The position numbers were made by a program, and so were the translations under genes. 64,000 bases of DNA from Desulfobulbaceae bacterium. GTDB taxonomy: Bacteria; Bacteroidota; Ignavibacteria; Kapaibacteriales; UBA2268. The stretch is taken from positions 11,520-75,519 of the forward strand of contig JAGXRP010000058.1 in assembly GCA_018335795.1 (NCBI GenBank). The letters are read 5' to 3'. Under the pieces are notes generated by a model. That model was not told where the DNA came from. It saw only the letters and a list, made by a program, of their open reading frames with translations, and ran no database searches. Shown here piece after piece: positions 2,820-9,270 of this stretch. How positions within the stretch are numbered: the first letter of the stretch is position 1; each line of letters begins with the position of its first letter.

Positions 2820-3974
2820 CTAAACTTCCTTCTTTTCTTTTTTATGAATGTTATGACCACCACGACCCGGTGACCAATTAAAATTTATACTATTTAACTG
2901 TCTGATTTGTTCTTCTGTTAATTGATAATTAAAATGTCCTTTTTTAACTTTCCTTATATAACGCACCCACTCTGATAATTTTCTATTTTCATTCGGAATT
3001 GAAATGTTGCCATTTTCCTCATAAAACTTTTTAAGTAATTTAAAGTTCAATTCCCAATTGTGTTCCTCCCAATGCCATATAAATCCAATTTCATTTAATC
3101 TTCGTTTTTTATCTTCCGGCAATTCACCTCTTTTCGTACGTTGACGATGTACCCAATAATAGAATAATCTGTCTTCGTAATTTACAGGAACATGACAGTG
3201 ACCATACTTATTTTTAAATTCTAACATTTTATTAAAATTTAATTCCCAATCATTCTCGAGAATTGATTCTTTAAGGTTAAAATTAAAATTAATGTTATTG
3301 AGTAATAAAATTTTATCTTTACTCAGCATATTGCGATTATAATACCAAATTTGTTTGCAACACCATCTGTTTAACCGATTCAAACTTTGCCCATTATAGC
3401 CTTGCGTCATATCCCGTTGAACGTAGGCAACACCGTGTTCTTCATAGTAATCTTTCAGCCAACCATACATTTCATCCCATTTATGCCGTTTAATTCCCCA
3501 GTCAAATTCAAGTTCATCAAGAAGTCTAATTCTCTCATCAGAAAGTCTTTTCTTGTGATAGCGCTGTTCTCCGACCCATTTGCCAAGCTTAAAATATTCA
3601 TTATCATATTTTGGAACATTACTATGACCAAATTTATTTTTATAATCTAATAATTCCTCATATCTTCTATGCCAGTAAGTATCAAGTGGTTCAAATAAAA
3701 AACCTGCATCCTGGAGTTGTTTAAATCTCCAGTCTTTCAGCAATCCTCTTCTTGCTTGTACTCTTTGAGTATTTGCCCATCTTGCAATAATTCCTATTTC
3801 GGGAGTAAATCTTGGACTTTCCGGCTCACAAGCTATTCTTTGATGTCCGTTTTTGCGAACAATTTCTTGCCATTTATTTAGTTTTTCTATCCATATTAAA
3901 TCCCATTTTTCATGAAGGGTCAATTCATCAACAGCGTAAACTTTTCGCCTATTTCTTACGACTACTTTAGCCAT
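2820..3974 (-). CDS. Helicase-associated (HA) domain repeat protein (five tandem HA domains), co-operonic with type IIG RM enzyme
   Basis: Five ~65-aa repeats each with W..(F/Y)..L..(F/Y)...GH..VP......LG.WV..QR........L...R...L..(I/L)GF.W signature of PF03457; start codon overlaps stop of upstream gene at 3974. Confidence 0.75.
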   Translation of the reverse strand: MAKVVVRNRRKVYAVDELTLHEKWDLIWIEKLNKWQEIVRKNGHQRIACEPESPRFTPEIGIIARWANTQRVQARRGLLKDWRFKQLQDAGFLFEPLDTYWHRRYEELLDYKNKFGHSNVPKYDNEYFKLGKWVGEQRYHKKRLSDERIRLLDELEFDWGIKRHKWDEMYGWLKDYYEEHGVAYVQRDMTQGYNGQSLNRLNRWCCKQIWYYNRNMLSKDKILLLNNINFNFNLKESILENDWELNFNKMLEFKNKYGHCHVPVNYEDRLFYYWVHRQRTKRGELPEDKKRRLNEIGFIWHWEEHNWELNFKLLKKFYEENGNISIPNENRKLSEWVRYIRKVKKGHFNYQLTEEQIRQLNSINFNWSPGRGGHNIHKKEKKEV

Positions 3975-6900
3975 TATTCTCCCTCCACAATCCTTATTTC
4001 TTCATCGCTCAATTCGTAGAGCTGATAGACGAGTTGGTCTATTGTGCGGTCGGTTTGGTTGATAATTGCTTTGATTTCCTGCGCTTTCGATGTCATTCGG
4101 GTTAGGCGTTCCGACCAGTCTTCTTTGTGTACGCCTTTGAGTTCGATTTTTAGCTTGCGGAGTTCGGCGGTGAAGTCTGCCCAACTGAGTTCGTACCAAT
4201 TTTGCAGTTTGGTGCTTAGTTTTTCGATGCTGAAATCTGCTTTCAGTAGGTCAAGAAATTTATTCTTTACATCCTGCAGCTCTTTATTTTTCTCAAGCAT
4301 AATATCGGCAAGCTCTATGAATGGGACTTGTGCTTCAGGAGATATGTTTGGAATGGGTAATTCTTTACATTGTCCAAGTTTTGCTTTTGGAAAAACATTG
4401 TCGAATTCTGAAAAATTGAATTTAAAGTAATAACCTAATAAAGTTGAATTCAATATTGTAAGAATAAATCTATAATCATAATTTGAATCTTCTGAAATTA
4501 ATTTGCAAACATGAGCAGTATTTTTTGTGGTGTAGTCATCACTTACAAATGTAGCAATAATACCCCTTGTATCAGGTATTTCTCTAATAATTATTCGATC
4601 TCCAATAAAAATATCTTTCTTTCTAGGAGCCGCTAACCATTCACCATATTTAATGTACTCATTCATCCAATCAATTTGATACCTTTTAATATTATTCCCA
4701 GATAGATGTTTCAAATAATCATCAGATATTTTATAATTTGAATTAAATACTTTATTAATTACATCGGATGAGGTTTGTTTTGGAATACCTTTCCCAATCT
4801 CATATTCTTTCAAACCACTATAAAGATTACATATAGAATTTAACTTTATGCTATTTTGATTTACTTTTTCAATTAGCTTTTTTGTTGAGTCATTTTGAAA
4901 TAATTGAAAATCTCCATGTTCTTTGATGTTATCTTGTATAATCTCGGATGATTTAGTAATATTATTATTTATTAGTTCGGATGTCTGAATTATATTATTT
5001 TCAACGTACAACTTTTTAGCTATAATTATTGAATTATCAACCTTAATTCCTTCGAATACTCCCATTGGTAATATTACTAAATCATTAATCGTATGTTCTG
5101 ATAGTATTGATGTTCTAAAATTAACTAATGTTAAATTATTTATCCAAGAGTTTGGAATAATTAACCCAAGAGTTCCATTTAATGATAACAAATCAAATGA
5201 AAGTTTTGTAAATAAAAGGTATAAATCTAATTGATTTTTTTGAAGATTATACTTTAAACTTAAATAATCACTTTGAATTGATATATCTTTATTATCAATA
5301 TTAGTAACATACGGTGGATTGCCAATAACGACATCGAAGCCGCCGGAATATTCTAATTTATCATTTATTTGAGCATCGGCTTGTGCATTATCCTTATTTA
5401 TCAATAAATACAAACGGTCAACTTCATCCATTATAGAATTACACACACCCTCAAAACTGTTCATCACTTCTAAATTATTGAATCTTATAACTTTAATGCC
5501 ATAATGATTTAATATTTCGGAACGGACACTGTCGTATTCAAGCCCCTCATCACTAAAATGCGAATCGCCGTCAATTTCGATTGCCAACTTCACCTCGGCA
5601 ATATAAAAATCAACGATATAATTGTCAATAGTTCTCTGCCTTAAAACTCTGAATTTGAAATCATGCAGAAAGTGATACCAAAGCTTTTTCTCGGGCGCTG
5701 TCATATTTTTCCTCAACTCTTTCGCCCTATCAATGAGTTTCGGATTATACGGCAAATAATATTGCGAATAAAGCAGCCCTCTTTTGATAATCCAATCTTT
5801 CATATGCGCATAAGAATCCCCCTTTAATTCCCCCTTGGAAAGGGGGATTTCGCCCATATCATGATTTAATTCCCCCTTGGGAAGCGGAATTTCGTCCATA
5901 TCTTCATCAAATTCGTCCATATTTTTATTTAATTCCCCCTTGGAAAGGGGGATTTCGCCCATTTCATGATTTAATTCCCCCTTGGGAAGCGGGATTTCGT
6001 CCATATCTTCATCAAATTCGTCCATATTTTGATTTAATTCCCCCTTGGAAAGGGGGTTAGGGGGATATGACTTCTCATCTATTTTGGGATATGCGCCTGA
6101 TTTTGAATTAGAATTATAAGAATCCCCCTTTAATTCCCCCTTGGAAAGGGGGATTTCGCCCATTTCTTGATTTAATTCCCCCTTTTTAAGGGGGTTAGGG
6201 GGATATGACTTCTCATCTATTTTGGGATATGCGCTTAATTTTGAATTCAAATTATAAGAATCCCCCTTTAATTCTCCCTTGGAAAGGGGGATTTCGCCCA
6301 AATAACGATTAAGTTCCCCCTTTTTAAGGGGGTTAGGGGGATATGACTTTTTAACTTTAAACACCTGCGGAAATTCCTTCGCCCAATCAAATGCTTTCTC
6401 GCCTGCTACTTCGGGGTCGTCTATCAGTGAGTTGCCGCATTTGATATTACTTGTGAGCGTGTTTAGTTTTCTGCCTTTTTGTGCAGTCCGCAGCCATAAG
6501 GAAAGTTTTGCGATTTCGACGGATTCTTCATTTATATCCACACCGAATATATTATTTTCGAGTATGTCGGTGGTAATATCGGCAAAAACTAAGCCACCAC
6601 CAAATAGCAATGCCCGCAGTTCATCGAGCTTTCTGTGTTCTTCAATTAAAAATTCGAGCGCCTGATTCAAAAATGCTCCGGAGCCGCAAGCGGGGTCAAG
6701 TATTGTGATGGTAAGTAGCCAGTTGCGATAATTTGTGATTTTTGCGTCGAGTGCAATGATTATGTTTTTATCTTTTTTGGTTCTTTCGATTGCATAATCT
6801 TCGGGGTTGATGCCGAATTGGACGCGTTTTTCAGCACATAATTTACCGACAGTATTTTCAACGATATATTTTGTGATGTATTTGGGAGTATAGTAGATGC

Positions 6901-8017
6901 CGTCTTTTTTGCGTTTGGATTTTTGGGTTTCGACTTTTTCGCCCATGATTTCCGCCTGCACGTTTTCAATTTCACCAAGTGAATGCTCGAAAATATGCCC
7001 GAGAATATTGACATCGACTTCTGTATCGAAATCGTATTGGGATAGTTTCAGGGTATGACTGTATAGGATTTCATCATCAATTGTGATGTTGTCCAAAATT
7101 TCATCTTCAGCGAAAAGCCCGCCATTATAGGCAAAAACCTCCATGTGCTTATTTTTGTATCCGGTGTTCAGGTAGCCGAAATATTTTTTGAATCTGTCGT
7201 AGAGCGGCACGTATTCATCAAGTACATCACGCAGAGTTTCCCAATGATTTATAATTTCCCTGATGGAATTTGGTGGCAGAAGCAGTCGGTCCTCAGCGAA
7301 AAATACGAATAAAAATCGATCGAGAAGTTTTTGCGTCTTCTTGAAAAGCAGAAGTTTGTCGAGCTCGGGATTATTTTTTATCAGATTATTATAAATAGCG
7401 TTGCGGAATTTGGAGTAATCGGCATAAAGCTTTTTGGTAATGTCTTCTTCCTGCAATAGGGAAGATTCCTTGATTTTGAGCGGCACATCATTTAGCAGAT
7501 TATCTTTGCCTAGACAGAGCCACAGCAGAGAAAATTGATTACGCGAAAGATTGAACAAATCAAAATCAATGTAATCAACGGCATTTTGGATATAAAAACG
7601 CAATTTGCCGAAATTTGAAGTGATGACATAAATACATTTTGGATGATGATTTTTGTAGCCGAACGCCTGGGATTCGATAGTGTCAAGGTCGGTAGTGGAG
7701 AGCGATTTCAGTTCGATGACGGCAAGGGCTTCATCACCGCGTAAGATAGCACCGTCGGCTTTGCGGCTGTTGGTGATATTTTTATATTCGGAAATTAGGT
7801 TGTAATCCGGCTCGGGCTGTAGTGTATAGCCCAAAATTTTGACGAATAATTCCCGAAGGAAACCTTCCTGAAATTGTTCTTCTTTGGCAGATTTAATATT
7901 TAGCTGAATCAGCTTATTGCCGAAATATTCCATAAATGCGGAATACTTGACATCAATGAGTGTGGAATCCAACTCATTTAGATATTTTTTCTCAACTGAC
8001 TTTTGAAATAAACTCAT
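3974..8017 (-). CDS. Type IIG restriction-modification fusion enzyme (N-terminal PD-ExK nuclease + Eco57I/MmeI-like gamma-class N6-adenine MTase + TRD) carrying a ~332-aa in-frame insertion
   Basis: N-term ADGAIL...AVIELKS (PD-ExK); MTase motif I ILDPACGSGAFL; NNIFGVDINEESVEIAKLSLWL; CGNSLIDD; FDWAKEFPQVF then insertion then GGFDVVIGNPPYV (motif IV). Confidence 0.75.
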   Translation of the reverse strand: MSLFQKSVEKKYLNELDSTLIDVKYSAFMEYFGNKLIQLNIKSAKEEQFQEGFLRELFVKILGYTLQPEPDYNLISEYKNITNSRKADGAILRGDEALAVIELKSLSTTDLDTIESQAFGYKNHHPKCIYVITSNFGKLRFYIQNAVDYIDFDLFNLSRNQFSLLWLCLGKDNLLNDVPLKIKESSLLQEEDITKKLYADYSKFRNAIYNNLIKNNPELDKLLLFKKTQKLLDRFLFVFFAEDRLLLPPNSIREIINHWETLRDVLDEYVPLYDRFKKYFGYLNTGYKNKHMEVFAYNGGLFAEDEILDNITIDDEILYSHTLKLSQYDFDTEVDVNILGHIFEHSLGEIENVQAEIMGEKVETQKSKRKKDGIYYTPKYITKYIVENTVGKLCAEKRVQFGINPEDYAIERTKKDKNIIIALDAKITNYRNWLLTITILDPACGSGAFLNQALEFLIEEHRKLDELRALLFGGGLVFADITTDILENNIFGVDINEESVEIAKLSLWLRTAQKGRKLNTLTSNIKCGNSLIDDPEVAGEKAFDWAKEFPQVFKVKKSYPPNPLKKGELNRYLGEIPLSKGELKGDSYNLNSKLSAYPKIDEKSYPPNPLKKGELNQEMGEIPLSKGELKGDSYNSNSKSGAYPKIDEKSYPPNPLSKGELNQNMDEFDEDMDEIPLPKGELNHEMGEIPLSKGELNKNMDEFDEDMDEIPLPKGELNHDMGEIPLSKGELKGDSYAHMKDWIIKRGLLYSQYYLPYNPKLIDRAKELRKNMTAPEKKLWYHFLHDFKFRVLRQRTIDNYIVDFYIAEVKLAIEIDGDSHFSDEGLEYDSVRSEILNHYGIKVIRFNNLEVMNSFEGVCNSIMDEVDRLYLLINKDNAQADAQINDKLEYSGGFDVVIGNPPYVTNIDNKDISIQSDYLSLKYNLQKNQLDLYLLFTKLSFDLLSLNGTLGLIIPNSWINNLTLVNFRTSILSEHTINDLVILPMGVFEGIKVDNSIIIAKKLYVENNIIQTSELINNNITKSSEIIQDNIKEHGDFQLFQNDSTKKLIEKVNQNSIKLNSICNLYSGLKEYEIGKGIPKQTSSDVINKVFNSNYKISDDYLKHLSGNNIKRYQIDWMNEYIKYGEWLAAPRKKDIFIGDRIIIREIPDTRGIIATFVSDDYTTKNTAHVCKLISEDSNYDYRFILTILNSTLLGYYFKFNFSEFDNVFPKAKLGQCKELPIPNISPEAQVPFIELADIMLEKNKELQDVKNKFLDLLKADFSIEKLSTKLQNWYELSWADFTAELRKLKIELKGVHKEDWSERLTRMTSKAQEIKAIINQTDRTIDQLVYQLYELSDEEIRIVEGE
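5348..6343 (-). mobile_element. In-frame insertion inside the MTase catalytic domain: complete DUF559 (Vsr-like PD-(D/E)xK endonuclease) unit plus upstream repeat array
   Basis: Inserted segment translates MKDWIIKRGLLYSQYYLPYNPKLIDRAKELRKNMTAPEKKLWYHFLHDFKFRVLRQRTIDNYIVDFYIAEVKLAIEIDGDSHF...GIKVIRFNNLEVMNSFEGV (canonical DUF559 from its own Met). Flanking MTase residues FPQVF and GGFDVVIGNPPY are normally ~10 aa apart in Eco57I-family enzymes. Confidence 0.5.
5805..6343. repeat. Array of nested direct repeats (~138-bp super-unit, 46 codons) built from CCCCC-N7-GGGGG hairpins; in frame within the ORF, encoding PLSKGEL / SYPPNPLKKGEL peptide repeats
   Basis: ttaattcccccttggaaagggggatttcgcccat x5, ttaattcccccttgggaagcgggatttcgtccatatcttcatcaaattcgtccatatt x2, aagggggttagggggatatgactt... 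x3. Confidence 0.85.
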
Positions 8018-8040
8018 ATTTAATTTATGAATATTTTTAT

Positions 8041-8070
8041 TATTAATTTACCCCAAACCCCGAACCCCAA
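8041..8070 (-). other. Canonical G-quadruplex motif on coding strand 24-53 nt upstream of the RM gene start
   Basis: Minus strand reads GGGGTTTTGGGGTTCGGGGTTTGGGG (four G4 tracts, loops 3-4 nt). Confidence 0.5.
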
Positions 8071-8076
8071 AACCCC

Positions 8077-9270
8077 TTACCGCATGTCTTTTAGTACGAT
8101 TTCGATTTCGTGAGCTAATTTTTTGTTGACTTGGTCGAATGTGCCGCTACCGTCAATTTTGACACCATTATGCAATTTCATGTATTTTGAAATTACGGGG
8201 ACTGTTCTTGTTTCGTGGTCTTGCAAACGTTGGATGATTTTTTCGTAATTGGAATCATAGGGTCGGCTGCCATCGGTTTTGCCACGTACATTTAATCTGC
8301 GAATCAATTCTAAGGTAGGGACTTCGATTTCGATTACTTTTGTGATGGACGATGTGTATTTCTTGAGCAATCCGTCCAGAATATATGATTGAACCAATGT
8401 TCTCGGGAATCCTTTGAAAATGAAACCCTTCATGTCCTGCGATTTAGAGATTTTTTCTTCAATCAATTGGACAACTATTTCATCGGGGACTAATTGACCG
8501 ATTTGGTCGGGGTTTAGAGTGCCACTATCATAAAGCTTTTTAATTTGGATTCCGTATTCAGTTTGCATTTCAACTTCGCTTTCTAACATATCGCCGGCTG
8601 AAAGGTATTCGAGACCGAATTTTTCGGCTAATGCTCTGCCTTGGGCGCTACGTCCCGAGCCCGGATAGCCGAATAGAACGACATTGAGCAAGCTCTTGCT
8701 GAGTTCTTCTTTGACGATTTCGGTGATTTGGTCTTTGACACCTTTGATGTCCAAAAGTCCATTGACCTCTTTGTAATTGCCGCGGTCTTTGAAAAATTTG
8801 AGCACGGGCAACGTTTTTTGGTTGTATTCTTGCAATCGTGTTCGGATTACGCTTTCGTTGTCGTCGGAGCGGCTCGAAGATTTTCCTCTGCCGAGAAGCC
8901 TTTTGACGGATTCTTCTTCAGGCACATCAATGCTGATTAGGCAATTTAGCGAGGTGTTGAGCTTGAGCATCAAGCCTTCGAGTATATAGGCTTGGACGTA
9001 GGTACGCGGGAAGCCGTCGAAAAGAAAGCCGTTGAATGAGGTATTTTCGGTGATTGTCTTTTCAATTATTTGGACTATGATTTCGTCAGAAACCAAGCCG
9101 CCGGACGCGATGACGCTTTTAACTTCTTTGCCGATTGGCGTATCGAGTGAGATTTCATTTCGGAGCAAATCGCCTGTCGAAATGTAGAATAAATTGTATT
9201 TCTTAATTAAATACTCTGACTGTGTTCCTTTCCCTGCACCCGGAGGTCCAAATAGTGCTATGTTCAACAT
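8077..9270 (-). CDS. adk: Tandem-duplicated (fused) adenylate kinase; second domain has degenerate P-loop
   Basis: Domain 1: FGPPGAGKGTQ, LFDGFPRT. Domain 2 directly fused: FGYPGSGRSAQG (Walker-A Lys->Arg, GT->SA), FKGFPRT retained; both short-LID type. Confidence 0.85.
   Translation of the reverse strand: MLNIALFGPPGAGKGTQSEYLIKKYNLFYISTGDLLRNEISLDTPIGKEVKSVIASGGLVSDEIIVQIIEKTITENTSFNGFLFDGFPRTYVQAYILEGLMLKLNTSLNCLISIDVPEEESVKRLLGRGKSSSRSDDNESVIRTRLQEYNQKTLPVLKFFKDRGNYKEVNGLLDIKGVKDQITEIVKEELSKSLLNVVLFGYPGSGRSAQGRALAEKFGLEYLSAGDMLESEVEMQTEYGIQIKKLYDSGTLNPDQIGQLVPDEIVVQLIEEKISKSQDMKGFIFKGFPRTLVQSYILDGLLKKYTSSITKVIEIEVPTLELIRRLNVRGKTDGSRPYDSNYEKIIQRLQDHETRTVPVISKYMKLHNGVKIDGSGTFDQVNKKLAHEIEIVLKDMR

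Follow-up and report, generated by a model that had tools for sequence, protein, structure and literature searches.

A DUF559 nuclease domain and a hairpin-repeat array lie in frame within a type IIG restriction-modification gene

Results

Layout of the interrupted gene

We analysed a 64,000-nucleotide (nt) stretch of contig JAGXRP010000058.1 (positions 11,520–75,519 of the forward strand, assembly GCA_018335795.1), hereafter the window, which comes from a metagenome-assembled genome (MAG) of a Desulfobulbaceae bacterium. On its reverse strand, at 3974–8017, an open reading frame (ORF) of 1347 amino acids (aa) encodes an MmeI/Eco57I-like type IIG restriction-modification enzyme, whose methyltransferase (MTase) domain is split in frame by an insert made of a hairpin-repeat array and a DUF559 endonuclease domain. 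An identical 1347-aa protein (P0001) is recorded at NCBI as ‘DUF559 domain-containing protein [Desulfobulbaceae bacterium]’.

The ORF list and a Pfam search give the domain order of the host. MmeI_hel, MmeI_Mtase (aa 425–526), Eco57I and N6_Mtase are all matched, with MTase scores of 43.4, 137 and 63.7 bits for MmeI_Mtase, Eco57I and N6_Mtase, respectively, each above its cutoff, and a C-terminal target-recognition domain matches TaqI_C (aa 1103–1222, E 4e-19). The Eco57I match is broken into two stretches, the C-terminal one covering aa 874–983, and DUF559 (PF04480, aa 762–866) falls between them. No Pfam model matched the N-terminal nuclease region, which is assigned by motif only: D88...E102-x-K104 (7706–7756) is invariant in an alignment of 10 homologs, and, as in the MmeI family, we take it to be the catalytic PD-(D/E)xK-type motif of the host. 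The N-terminal half of the MTase (6359–6697) runs from motif I, DPACGSGAF (aa 441, 6671–6697), to FDWAKEFPQVF (6359–6391), where the conserved N part ends. Motif I and motif IV, GNPPY (aa 899–903), are present in one polypeptide, as in gamma-class N6-adenine MTases. The ORF is an intact type IIG gene in which all host motifs are kept, and judging from these motifs the enzyme is presumably still active.

The borders of the insert were set by DNA comparison with an uninterrupted locus (L003, protein P0002) and with a locus that carries a different nuclease domain, Y1, at this site (L001). The insert occupies 5348–6355, that is 1008 nt or 336 codons (aa 555–890), and is open in the host frame; its left junction reads ...GTGTTTAAAG|TTAAAAAGTCATATCCCCC... 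and its right junction ...TTAGAATAT|TCCGGCGGCTTCGATGTC. FDWAKEFPQVF starts at aa 543 (6391–6359) and GGFDVVIGNPPY at aa 892 (5344–5309), with 338 aa between the two motifs. A preliminary description, made from the window sequence alone, had put this spacing at about 332 aa and the insertion at 5348–6343, which is essentially right. The host frame of the insert contains no stop codon, whereas the two remaining sense frames have 27 and 40 and each antisense frame 16–20. The repeat part did not stay open in a single one of 20,000 shuffles; when its 243 nt of non-redundant unit content were shuffled, 0.2% remained open. The open frame lies far beyond chance, as the preliminary description had argued for a stop-free segment of about 1 kb.

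The first part of the insert in the sense of the mRNA, identified by motif and repeat search, is a 552-nt array (5804–6355, aa 555–738) of nine C5-loop-G5 hairpins that fall into two mutually inverted types. These TTCCCCCTTnnnAAGGGGG-like hairpins occur nine times here and nowhere else in the window, where 0.01 matches are expected by chance; the idea that they belong to a genome-wide family of repetitive extragenic palindromes (REPs) was rejected on their confinement to the insert within the 64 kb. Type 1 (mRNA sense) reads ATC5-TAA-C5-TTAAAAA-G5 and encodes PPNPLKKGE, and type 2 reads ATC5-TTTCCAA-G5-AATTAAA-G5-AT and encodes IPLSKGELKGD, so that one three-run DNA motif in opposite orientations yields two different peptides. 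The tandem periods of the array are 42, 63, 105 and 138 nt, every one a multiple of 3, and its units are 42, 105 or 138 nt long. In an AlphaFold2 model of aa 405–1050 the repeat region is predicted to be disordered, with a predicted local distance difference test score (pLDDT) of 28–40.

The array is followed by the nuclease, a Vsr-like PD-(D/E)xK domain that runs from Met739 to about aa 872 (5402–5803) and has no stop codon of its own. The DUF559 match itself (5420–5734) covers profile positions 4–108 of 109, with an E-value of 2.2e-26 and 92.3 bits against a cutoff of 20.6, and the domain aligns to PDB 3HRL with an E-value of 1.6e-11. Met739 aligns with the start of free-standing DUF559 homologs. 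Eight residues, E38, Q56, D65, E76, D78, H82, D91 and R94 (numbered from Met739), are conserved in 100% of 246 relatives and are all present in the window copy, which also matches 29 of the 30 columns conserved at 85% or more among relatives. The domain is modelled with a pLDDT of 90–98. From these features we infer that it is an active nuclease; no characterised member of this DUF559 clade was found in the literature searched. Both components had been recognised in the preliminary description, as hairpin repeats open in the same frame and, downstream of them, a complete DUF559 gene that begins at its own Met and lacks a stop.

The remaining 18 codons (aa 873–890, 5348–5401), ending in ...NKDNAQADAQINDKLEY, form a poorly conserved tail with 21% aa identity to the related insert at locus L004, in which the tail at the matching position retains a degenerate C-run motif. 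An internal promoter for a separate DUF559 product was also considered and rejected: no sigma-70-like promoter was found on the coding strand upstream of Met739 (5803–6360), which is weak evidence because Bacteroidota-type promoters lay outside the scan.

The insertion is old and the nuclease is under purifying selection

An insert of this kind also lies at this site in an independent MAG (locus L004, protein P0005), with two hairpins as against nine in the window. Substitutions between the two copies were estimated by the Nei-Gojobori method. For the DUF559 domain the proportions of synonymous (pS) and non-synonymous (pN) differences are 0.725 and 0.098, which gives a dN/dS ratio (omega) of ~0.04; the N part of the host shows a pS of 0.73–0.74 and an omega of ~0.05, and the repeat region an omega of ~0.85. 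The two embedded DUF559 domains are mutual nearest relatives at 84% identity, and the best free-standing relative reaches 68%. Since synonymous change is saturated and omega is ~0.04, the insertion is old and has stayed in frame over a long divergence, with its nuclease under strong purifying selection. A recent insertion and a frame open by chance are rejected by dN/dS and by shuffling, and the very recent, homing-like insertion that the preliminary description had offered as one of its options is contradicted by a synonymous divergence and a dN/dS like those of the host gene.

The hairpins follow a different pattern. Their 33-nt cores are 97–100% nt-identical between the window and L004, within coding DNA that is 74–80% identical and saturated at synonymous sites. 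Conservation of the cores above such surroundings points to constraint on the nucleotide sequence itself. At L004 (237–3885) the P0005 gene is broken downstream of the insert, and its TaqI_C part lies in a separate, overlapping ORF (3232–3885); this copy may be decaying, or its sequence may hold a frameshift error.

The insertion site is recurrently occupied

Homologs of the host enzyme number in the thousands, are mostly ~1008 aa long and come from Bacteroidales, Ignavibacteria and Kapabacteria-type genomes. We surveyed the insertion site in the 108 scorable homologs among the top matches. In 84 of them 12 or fewer residues separate EFPxxF from GGFDVVIGNPPY, in line with the spacing of about 10 residues that the preliminary description had called normal; these are the insert-free relatives that it had proposed to look for. 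DUF559 occupies the site in two (the window protein and P0005), an unrelated 77-aa segment in one, and a Y1_Tnp/HUH (RayT-like) domain, in precisely this position, in about 22, including P0003, P0004, P0016, P0032 and P0037 (at L001, positions 7650–8440).

The Y1 inserts are homologous to one another, have conserved junctions (KKAWHVT... and ...HAFRTEYKGGFDVVI, HAFRTEYKGG), keep their HUH and Tyr motifs intact, contain hairpin-derived peptides of their own (NKGLQPLV, NPTLQRGD) and have free-standing RayT-like relatives at 37–51% identity. P0003, the protein closest to the window N part (92% aa identity), bears a Y1 insert in place of DUF559. The tail of this Y1 insert, QNKLEYK, is similar to the window tail NDKLEYS, and directly downstream of the P0003 gene (L001, 9736–10401) a 221-aa ORF matches only the C-terminal half of Y1_Tnp (E 2.8e-08). 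No Y1_Tnp domain was found in the window protein by Pfam or across the window by tblastn. In a tree built from the first 550 aa, proteins with an insert are intermixed with those that have none.

The nearest solved relatives of the host are BREX PglX (8C45 and others) and MmeI (5HR4). Like MmeI, the host has an N-terminal nuclease, a helical spacer, a gamma-class N6-adenine MTase and a TaqI_C-type target-recognition domain; unlike the host, MmeI has no insertion before motif IV. In PglX, ~120 residues lie between segments that are 37 apart in an uninterrupted homolog, and these ~85 extra residues are native and, in contrast to the insert, contain no nuclease. The spot therefore varies in length even among characterised enzymes. 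In other type IIG lineages (P0255, P0348, P0374) a DUF559 domain sits in the same linker, before GGFDxVIGNPPY. Judging from these alignments, the site is a recurrent and permissive insertion point. The preliminary description had reasoned that a long native linker here in intact enzymes would count against an insertion; extra length is present in part of the family (~22 of 108 with Y1, and the PglX segment), and this does not overturn the reading of the insert as a cassette.

The site also marks a sharp border in sequence conservation. Over aa 1–557 the gene is 85, 80 and 74% nt-identical to L001, L003 and L004, respectively. Directly 3' of the insert, an island of 38–42 nt that encodes motif IV with the preceding residue (S-GGFDVVIGNPPY, 5307–5347) is 88–95% nt-identical to L001 and L003. 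Beyond it, over the C-terminal half of the MTase and the target-recognition domain (aa 905–1224, 4346–5306), no nt similarity to L001, L003 or L004 is detectable, and the GC content drops to 0.255 (4400–5347) as against 0.38–0.41 for the rest of the gene, the insert and the window. Similarity resumes in the last 123–144 aa at 82, 74 and 68% nt identity to L001, L003 and L004, which corresponds to a conserved C-terminal tail in the window (aa 1225–1347 and the stop codon, 3974–4345). Mean aa identity to 107 homologs falls from 0.6–0.87 to 0.14–0.36 exactly at the insertion site. To judge from these comparisons, the C-terminal half of the MTase and its target-recognition domain look like an exchanged specificity cassette, with the insert at its 5' border. 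That the position of the insert at this constant/variable border has any causal part in module exchange is speculation.

The nuclease and the hairpins are associated in other genomes

Free-standing DUF559 genes ~55–65% identical to the window copy are found in Nostocales, other cyanobacteria and many metagenomes, and at one end or at both their ORFs often continue into PPTPLNKGG- or PPFLRGxRGD-type peptides. The same hairpin motif flanks such genes as 29–35-nt inverted repeats (L006, where they are 94% complementary, and L011), as 62-nt direct repeats with 95% identity (L010) or as tandem arrays (L007). The preliminary description had suggested a search for DUF559 genes flanked by the repeats seen in the window, and they are present in unrelated organisms and in metagenome loci.

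To quantify this association, hairpins of the pattern C5+-N5-9-G5+ were counted in 80 metagenome loci retrieved with a DUF559-only profile. Their density is 3.74 per kb within 250 nt of the DUF559 domain and 0.14 per kb elsewhere, a 27-fold difference. At 50% identity or more, hairpins flank the domain on one side or both in 50 of 53 loci, and on both in 31 of 53; among the more distant loci only 10 of 27 have one. The loop is usually TTnnnAA, and the upstream hairpin is of the C-loop-G-N-G type in 43 of 73 cases, the same type that stands directly before Met739 in the window. GC-rich, often inverted hairpins thus flank the nuclease in the DUF559 clade overall; in the window copy only the 5' side has them. 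We delimit the proposed class by C-run/loop/G-run hairpins that lie no more than about 250 nt from a DUF559 domain of this clade; in the window nine of them lie directly 5' of Met739. A contig scan of genomes with a single DUF559 sequence gave only five loci, and a plasmid collection only three weak matches.

The element is embedded in frame in unrelated genes

A phmmer scan of 1.84 billion cluster representatives was run with a query that included the C part of the MTase, which biases it towards MTase hosts. Among the best 150 representatives, 24 are at least 250 aa long with an internal DUF559 domain; 19 of these were run through Pfam, and 16 had recognisable host domains. Type ISP enzymes are the hosts in six proteins (P0277, P0291, P0297, P0358, P0382 and P0250), and P0370 is a type IIG enzyme with DUF559 at a different site. 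The others include housekeeping enzymes, namely leucyl-tRNA synthetase (LeuRS; P0345, P0362), MnmA with a split domain (P0261), a MurD-like Mur ligase (P0305), an ELP3-like radical SAM enzyme (P0309) and PabB-PabC (P0269). Embedded copies have hairpin-derived peptides at both junctions. The enrichment of restriction-modification enzymes in this list is partly an artefact, because the query contained the C part of the MTase.

With the DUF559-only profile, 6–9 of the 80 metagenome loci are embedded in long open frames, and their hosts are two kinds of beta-class DNA methylase, a DUF1156 methylase, 5-enolpyruvylshikimate-3-phosphate (EPSP) synthase with its domain split and an MnmC-like protein. 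Most embedded copies are closer to a free-standing copy than to any other embedded one, which implies many independent embedding events. One MnmA locus (L013, 1376–2395) was checked at the DNA level and has hairpins at both junctions. The genome of this locus reads TGA as Gly at conserved positions (a code 25-like usage, candidate phyla radiation (CPR)), and its DUF559 is adapted to the TGA-sense code, since its own EIDG motif uses such a codon.

The preliminary description had pictured a mobile endonuclease cassette that inserts in frame into a defence gene. The cassette part of this picture agrees with the hairpin-flanked free-standing copies and the recurrent embedding; the specificity for defence genes does not hold, LeuRS, MnmA, MurD and EPSP synthase being hosts as well, though DNA methyltransferases are the commonest.

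Hairpin-only inserts without a nuclease were also observed, in frame, at extra sites of the same hosts (P0004, P0291, P0297, P0358 and L087). In P0004 (aa ~355–420) LNKGLQMSD repeats follow ENIQAD, in P0297 the flanking repeat block is present in a second copy, and the EPSP synthase of L087 contains HLSPNPSPLLKERKGE.

Neighbouring genes and taxonomic label

Directly downstream of the host gene, an ORF at 2820–3974 on the same strand encodes 384 aa made up of five helicase-associated (HA, PF03457) repeats; the MTase stop codon and the start of this ORF overlap, and this neighbour is not kept in L001 or L003. The upstream neighbour (8077–9270, reverse strand, 397 aa) consists of two adenylate kinase domains fused in tandem (ADK, two stretches, E 7e-85). 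The GC content of the window (0.38) and the closest MTase homologs, from Kapabacteria/Ignavibacteria and Bacteroidales, suggest a lineage other than the NCBI label of this MAG, or a mis-binned contig.

Discussion

Relation to known elements

The insert resembles inteins with a homing endonuclease in several ways: it lies in frame with an end-to-end ORF, contains a nuclease, would be expressed by the host gene and sits beside highly conserved host motifs, and its relatives occupy essential and DNA-metabolism genes across phyla. It differs from them in that it has no splicing domain and no conserved junction nucleophiles, its nuclease is DUF559/Vsr-like rather than LAGLIDADG or HNH, the element is bounded by DNA hairpin repeats, and the insert is probably retained in the mature protein. 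Pfam gave no Hint or intein family at E ≤ 0.01; the junctions of the insert read ...FK|VKKS at its start and ...LEY|SGG at its end, and no consistent intein-type nucleophiles (Cys/Ser/Thr, His-Asn) are found at the junctions across hosts. An intein was rejected for these reasons, in agreement with the preliminary description, which had seen no intein signature. A self-splicing intron was rejected as well: a permissive Rfam scan of 3500–8500 gave only a chance mir-964 match, at 26 bits where the gathering score is 100.

Vsr-like EDxHD (I-Bth0305I-type) homing endonucleases occur as separate ORFs in fractured genes, split inteins and group I introns, and their genes invade conserved coding regions, with hairpins noted upstream (Dassa et al. 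2009, PMC2677866). The EDxHD type has been grouped with VSR and DUF559 in one PD-(D/E)xK structural clade (Steczkiewicz et al. 2012, PMC3424549). The insert nuclease belongs to that clade, and no sequence match to 3R3P was obtained for the DUF559 domain at E ≤ 1. Unlike the I-Bth0305I-type enzymes, which have their own start and stop, it forms one continuous ORF with its host, with neither intron nor intein.

A small nuclease gene with short, GC-rich, often inverted hairpins and hairpin-only derivatives nearby is also reminiscent of IS200/IS605 and of the ‘REPtrons’, in which REPs or bacterial interspersed mosaic elements (BIMEs) are paired with RayT, and sister alleles of this very MTase bear a RayT-like Y1 domain at the same site. 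In contrast to REPtrons, the fold here is PD-(D/E)xK rather than HUH, the C-run/G-run hairpins are not REP-like, and the unit lies within genes and is predicted to be translated instead of being intergenic. Rickettsia palindromic elements (RPEs) are hairpin-forming, in-frame, translated repeats that are tolerated in surface regions of conserved proteins; to our knowledge, they have no nuclease gene and are confined to Rickettsia. The window-type repeats differ in that they accompany a conserved nuclease and occur in cyanobacteria, CPR bacteria, Bacteroidota-like genomes and others. Both DUF559-hairpin elements and nuclease domains before motif IV of type IIG enzymes are undescribed in the literature searched, which took in few subscription journals.

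A long-resident element translated through with its host

We consider it probable, with some reserve, that the insert is a long-resident nuclease-hairpin element that is translated through within a type IIG enzyme, in a permissive linker. The element would consist of a DUF559 endonuclease ORF that spans it entirely without a stop codon and, as in the free-standing relatives, would be bounded by C-run/loop/G-run hairpins. Placed in a linker of 1–4 residues just before the motif IV (NPPY) strand, it would be translated as part of the host polypeptide, where the hairpin array would become a disordered linker rich in Pro, Gly, Lys and Glu and the nuclease an extra domain that folds autonomously. 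Use of host transcription and translation would explain how the element does without a promoter, start or stop of its own. Purifying selection on the nuclease would then most likely serve propagation of the element itself, possibly through nicking or cleavage of insert-free alleles or through action on the hairpin ends. We infer mobility or homing, and a role of the hairpins as cis sites, from these features.

Several observations weigh against this proposal. The hairpin motif search found no right-end hairpin in the window insert, and because of this the window copy may now be immobile. Only one copy of the element is present within the 64 kb. No presence/absence polymorphism between near-identical alleles was recovered, and no target-site duplication was found. 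DNA methyltransferases make up four of the six embedded loci in the DUF559-only scan, which could mean a functional link with the host and not mere tolerance, and strong long-term purifying selection would be expected equally of a domesticated domain. Production and activity of the 1347-aa protein are predictions. The AlphaFold2 model has a predicted template modelling score (pTM) of 0.41, with a poor N part and a confident DUF559 domain and MTase C part, and is unusable for the placement of the domains relative to one another.

Alternative explanations

Domestication is the alternative that most needs weighing, and we regard it as unlikely. Here a DUF559 domain of mobile origin would now serve the enzyme, as a second strand-nicking activity or as a DNA-binding module, and the frame would be kept for the host. 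It would account for an omega equal to that of the host gene over saturated synonymous divergence, for the use of the same site in at least four type IIG lineages and by a different nuclease (Y1/HUH) with conserved junction residues in ~20% of the family, and for the loss of the right-end hairpin in the window copy. DNA MTases are, moreover, the main hosts even with the DUF559-only query; this preference and the parallel Y1 inserts lead us to keep a functional link to the host open. However, the same nuclease-hairpin unit in LeuRS, MnmA, Mur ligase and EPSP synthase, which do not act on DNA, speaks for a selfish origin, alleles with and without the insert are spread across the family tree, and the host already has an N-terminal PD-(D/E)xK nuclease of its own. 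The array, with an omega of ~0.85 at the protein level and yet a conserved DNA core, behaves more as expected of a DNA element than of a protein linker.

It is improbable that the insert is an intervening sequence removed from the mRNA or the protein by some unrecognised mechanism, with the hairpins marking its ends. Related inserts do lie in essential genes (LeuRS, EPSP synthase, MnmA), where an extra 200–300 aa might harm, and hairpins usually occur at both ends, often as inverted repeats able to pair; the window copy, however, has no hairpin at its right end. Excision of RNA needs no open frame, yet the frame is always open, and Rfam finds no group I or II intron or other RNA family. Removal from the protein is at odds with the lack of a Hint/intein domain in Pfam and with junctions (K/V at the start, ...EY|S at the end) unlike those of an intein. 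We hold it to be similarly improbable that the gene is disrupted and decaying, either through a recent or neutral insertion that is open by luck or with only an internal-start DUF559-MTase-C fragment made. The alignment of Met739 with the start of free-standing homologs and the related L004 gene, broken downstream with its TaqI_C part in a separate ORF, are what such a history might leave. Against it, the frame is open far beyond chance, the insertion is older than a divergence with saturated synonymous sites, host and insert have an omega of ~0.05, all host motifs are intact, no promoter-like site precedes Met739 on the coding strand, and a C-terminal fragment would be without motif I, which binds S-adenosylmethionine (AdoMet). 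An assembly or sequencing artefact, that is, a false read-through or a chimeric contig, is hardly credible: the source is a MAG and repeat arrays are hard to assemble, so that the copy number of the repeats may be wrong, but there are records of the identical protein from two contigs and in several databases, the insert is present at this very site in an independent MAG (L004), and the same in-frame design recurs in dozens of unrelated assemblies.

A possible class of mobile elements

More tentatively, and with less than even confidence, we suggest that the DUF559 clade together with its C-run/G-run hairpins forms an undescribed class of mobile elements with an intein-like lifestyle without splicing. 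The hairpins of such elements would double as cis sites of the nuclease and as coding sequence for flexible Pro/Gly linkers, and the elements would colonise permissive loops beside strongly conserved DNA, with a preference for the DNA methyltransferases of restriction-modification and BREX-like systems. If so, it is tempting to think that nuclease breaks at the module border might drive the exchange of specificity cassettes between alleles.

If the proposal is true, a widespread selfish nuclease family persists by being translated inside host proteins without splicing, a third strategy beside inteins and introns, and it would so far be hidden in databases under the names ‘DUF559 domain-containing protein’ and ‘endonuclease domain-containing protein’. 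The very large DUF559 family, whose function is unknown, would gain a testable role, and the PPxPLxKGG-type peptides in many annotated ORFs would be explained. The embedded copies would also point out where restriction enzymes, tRNA synthetases and other enzymes have loops that tolerate a whole extra domain, which would be useful for protein engineering. Finally, the presence of two unrelated nucleases, DUF559 and RayT-like Y1, in the same linker at the constant/variable border of this enzyme family leads to the testable idea that such inserts may influence the reshuffling of restriction specificity.

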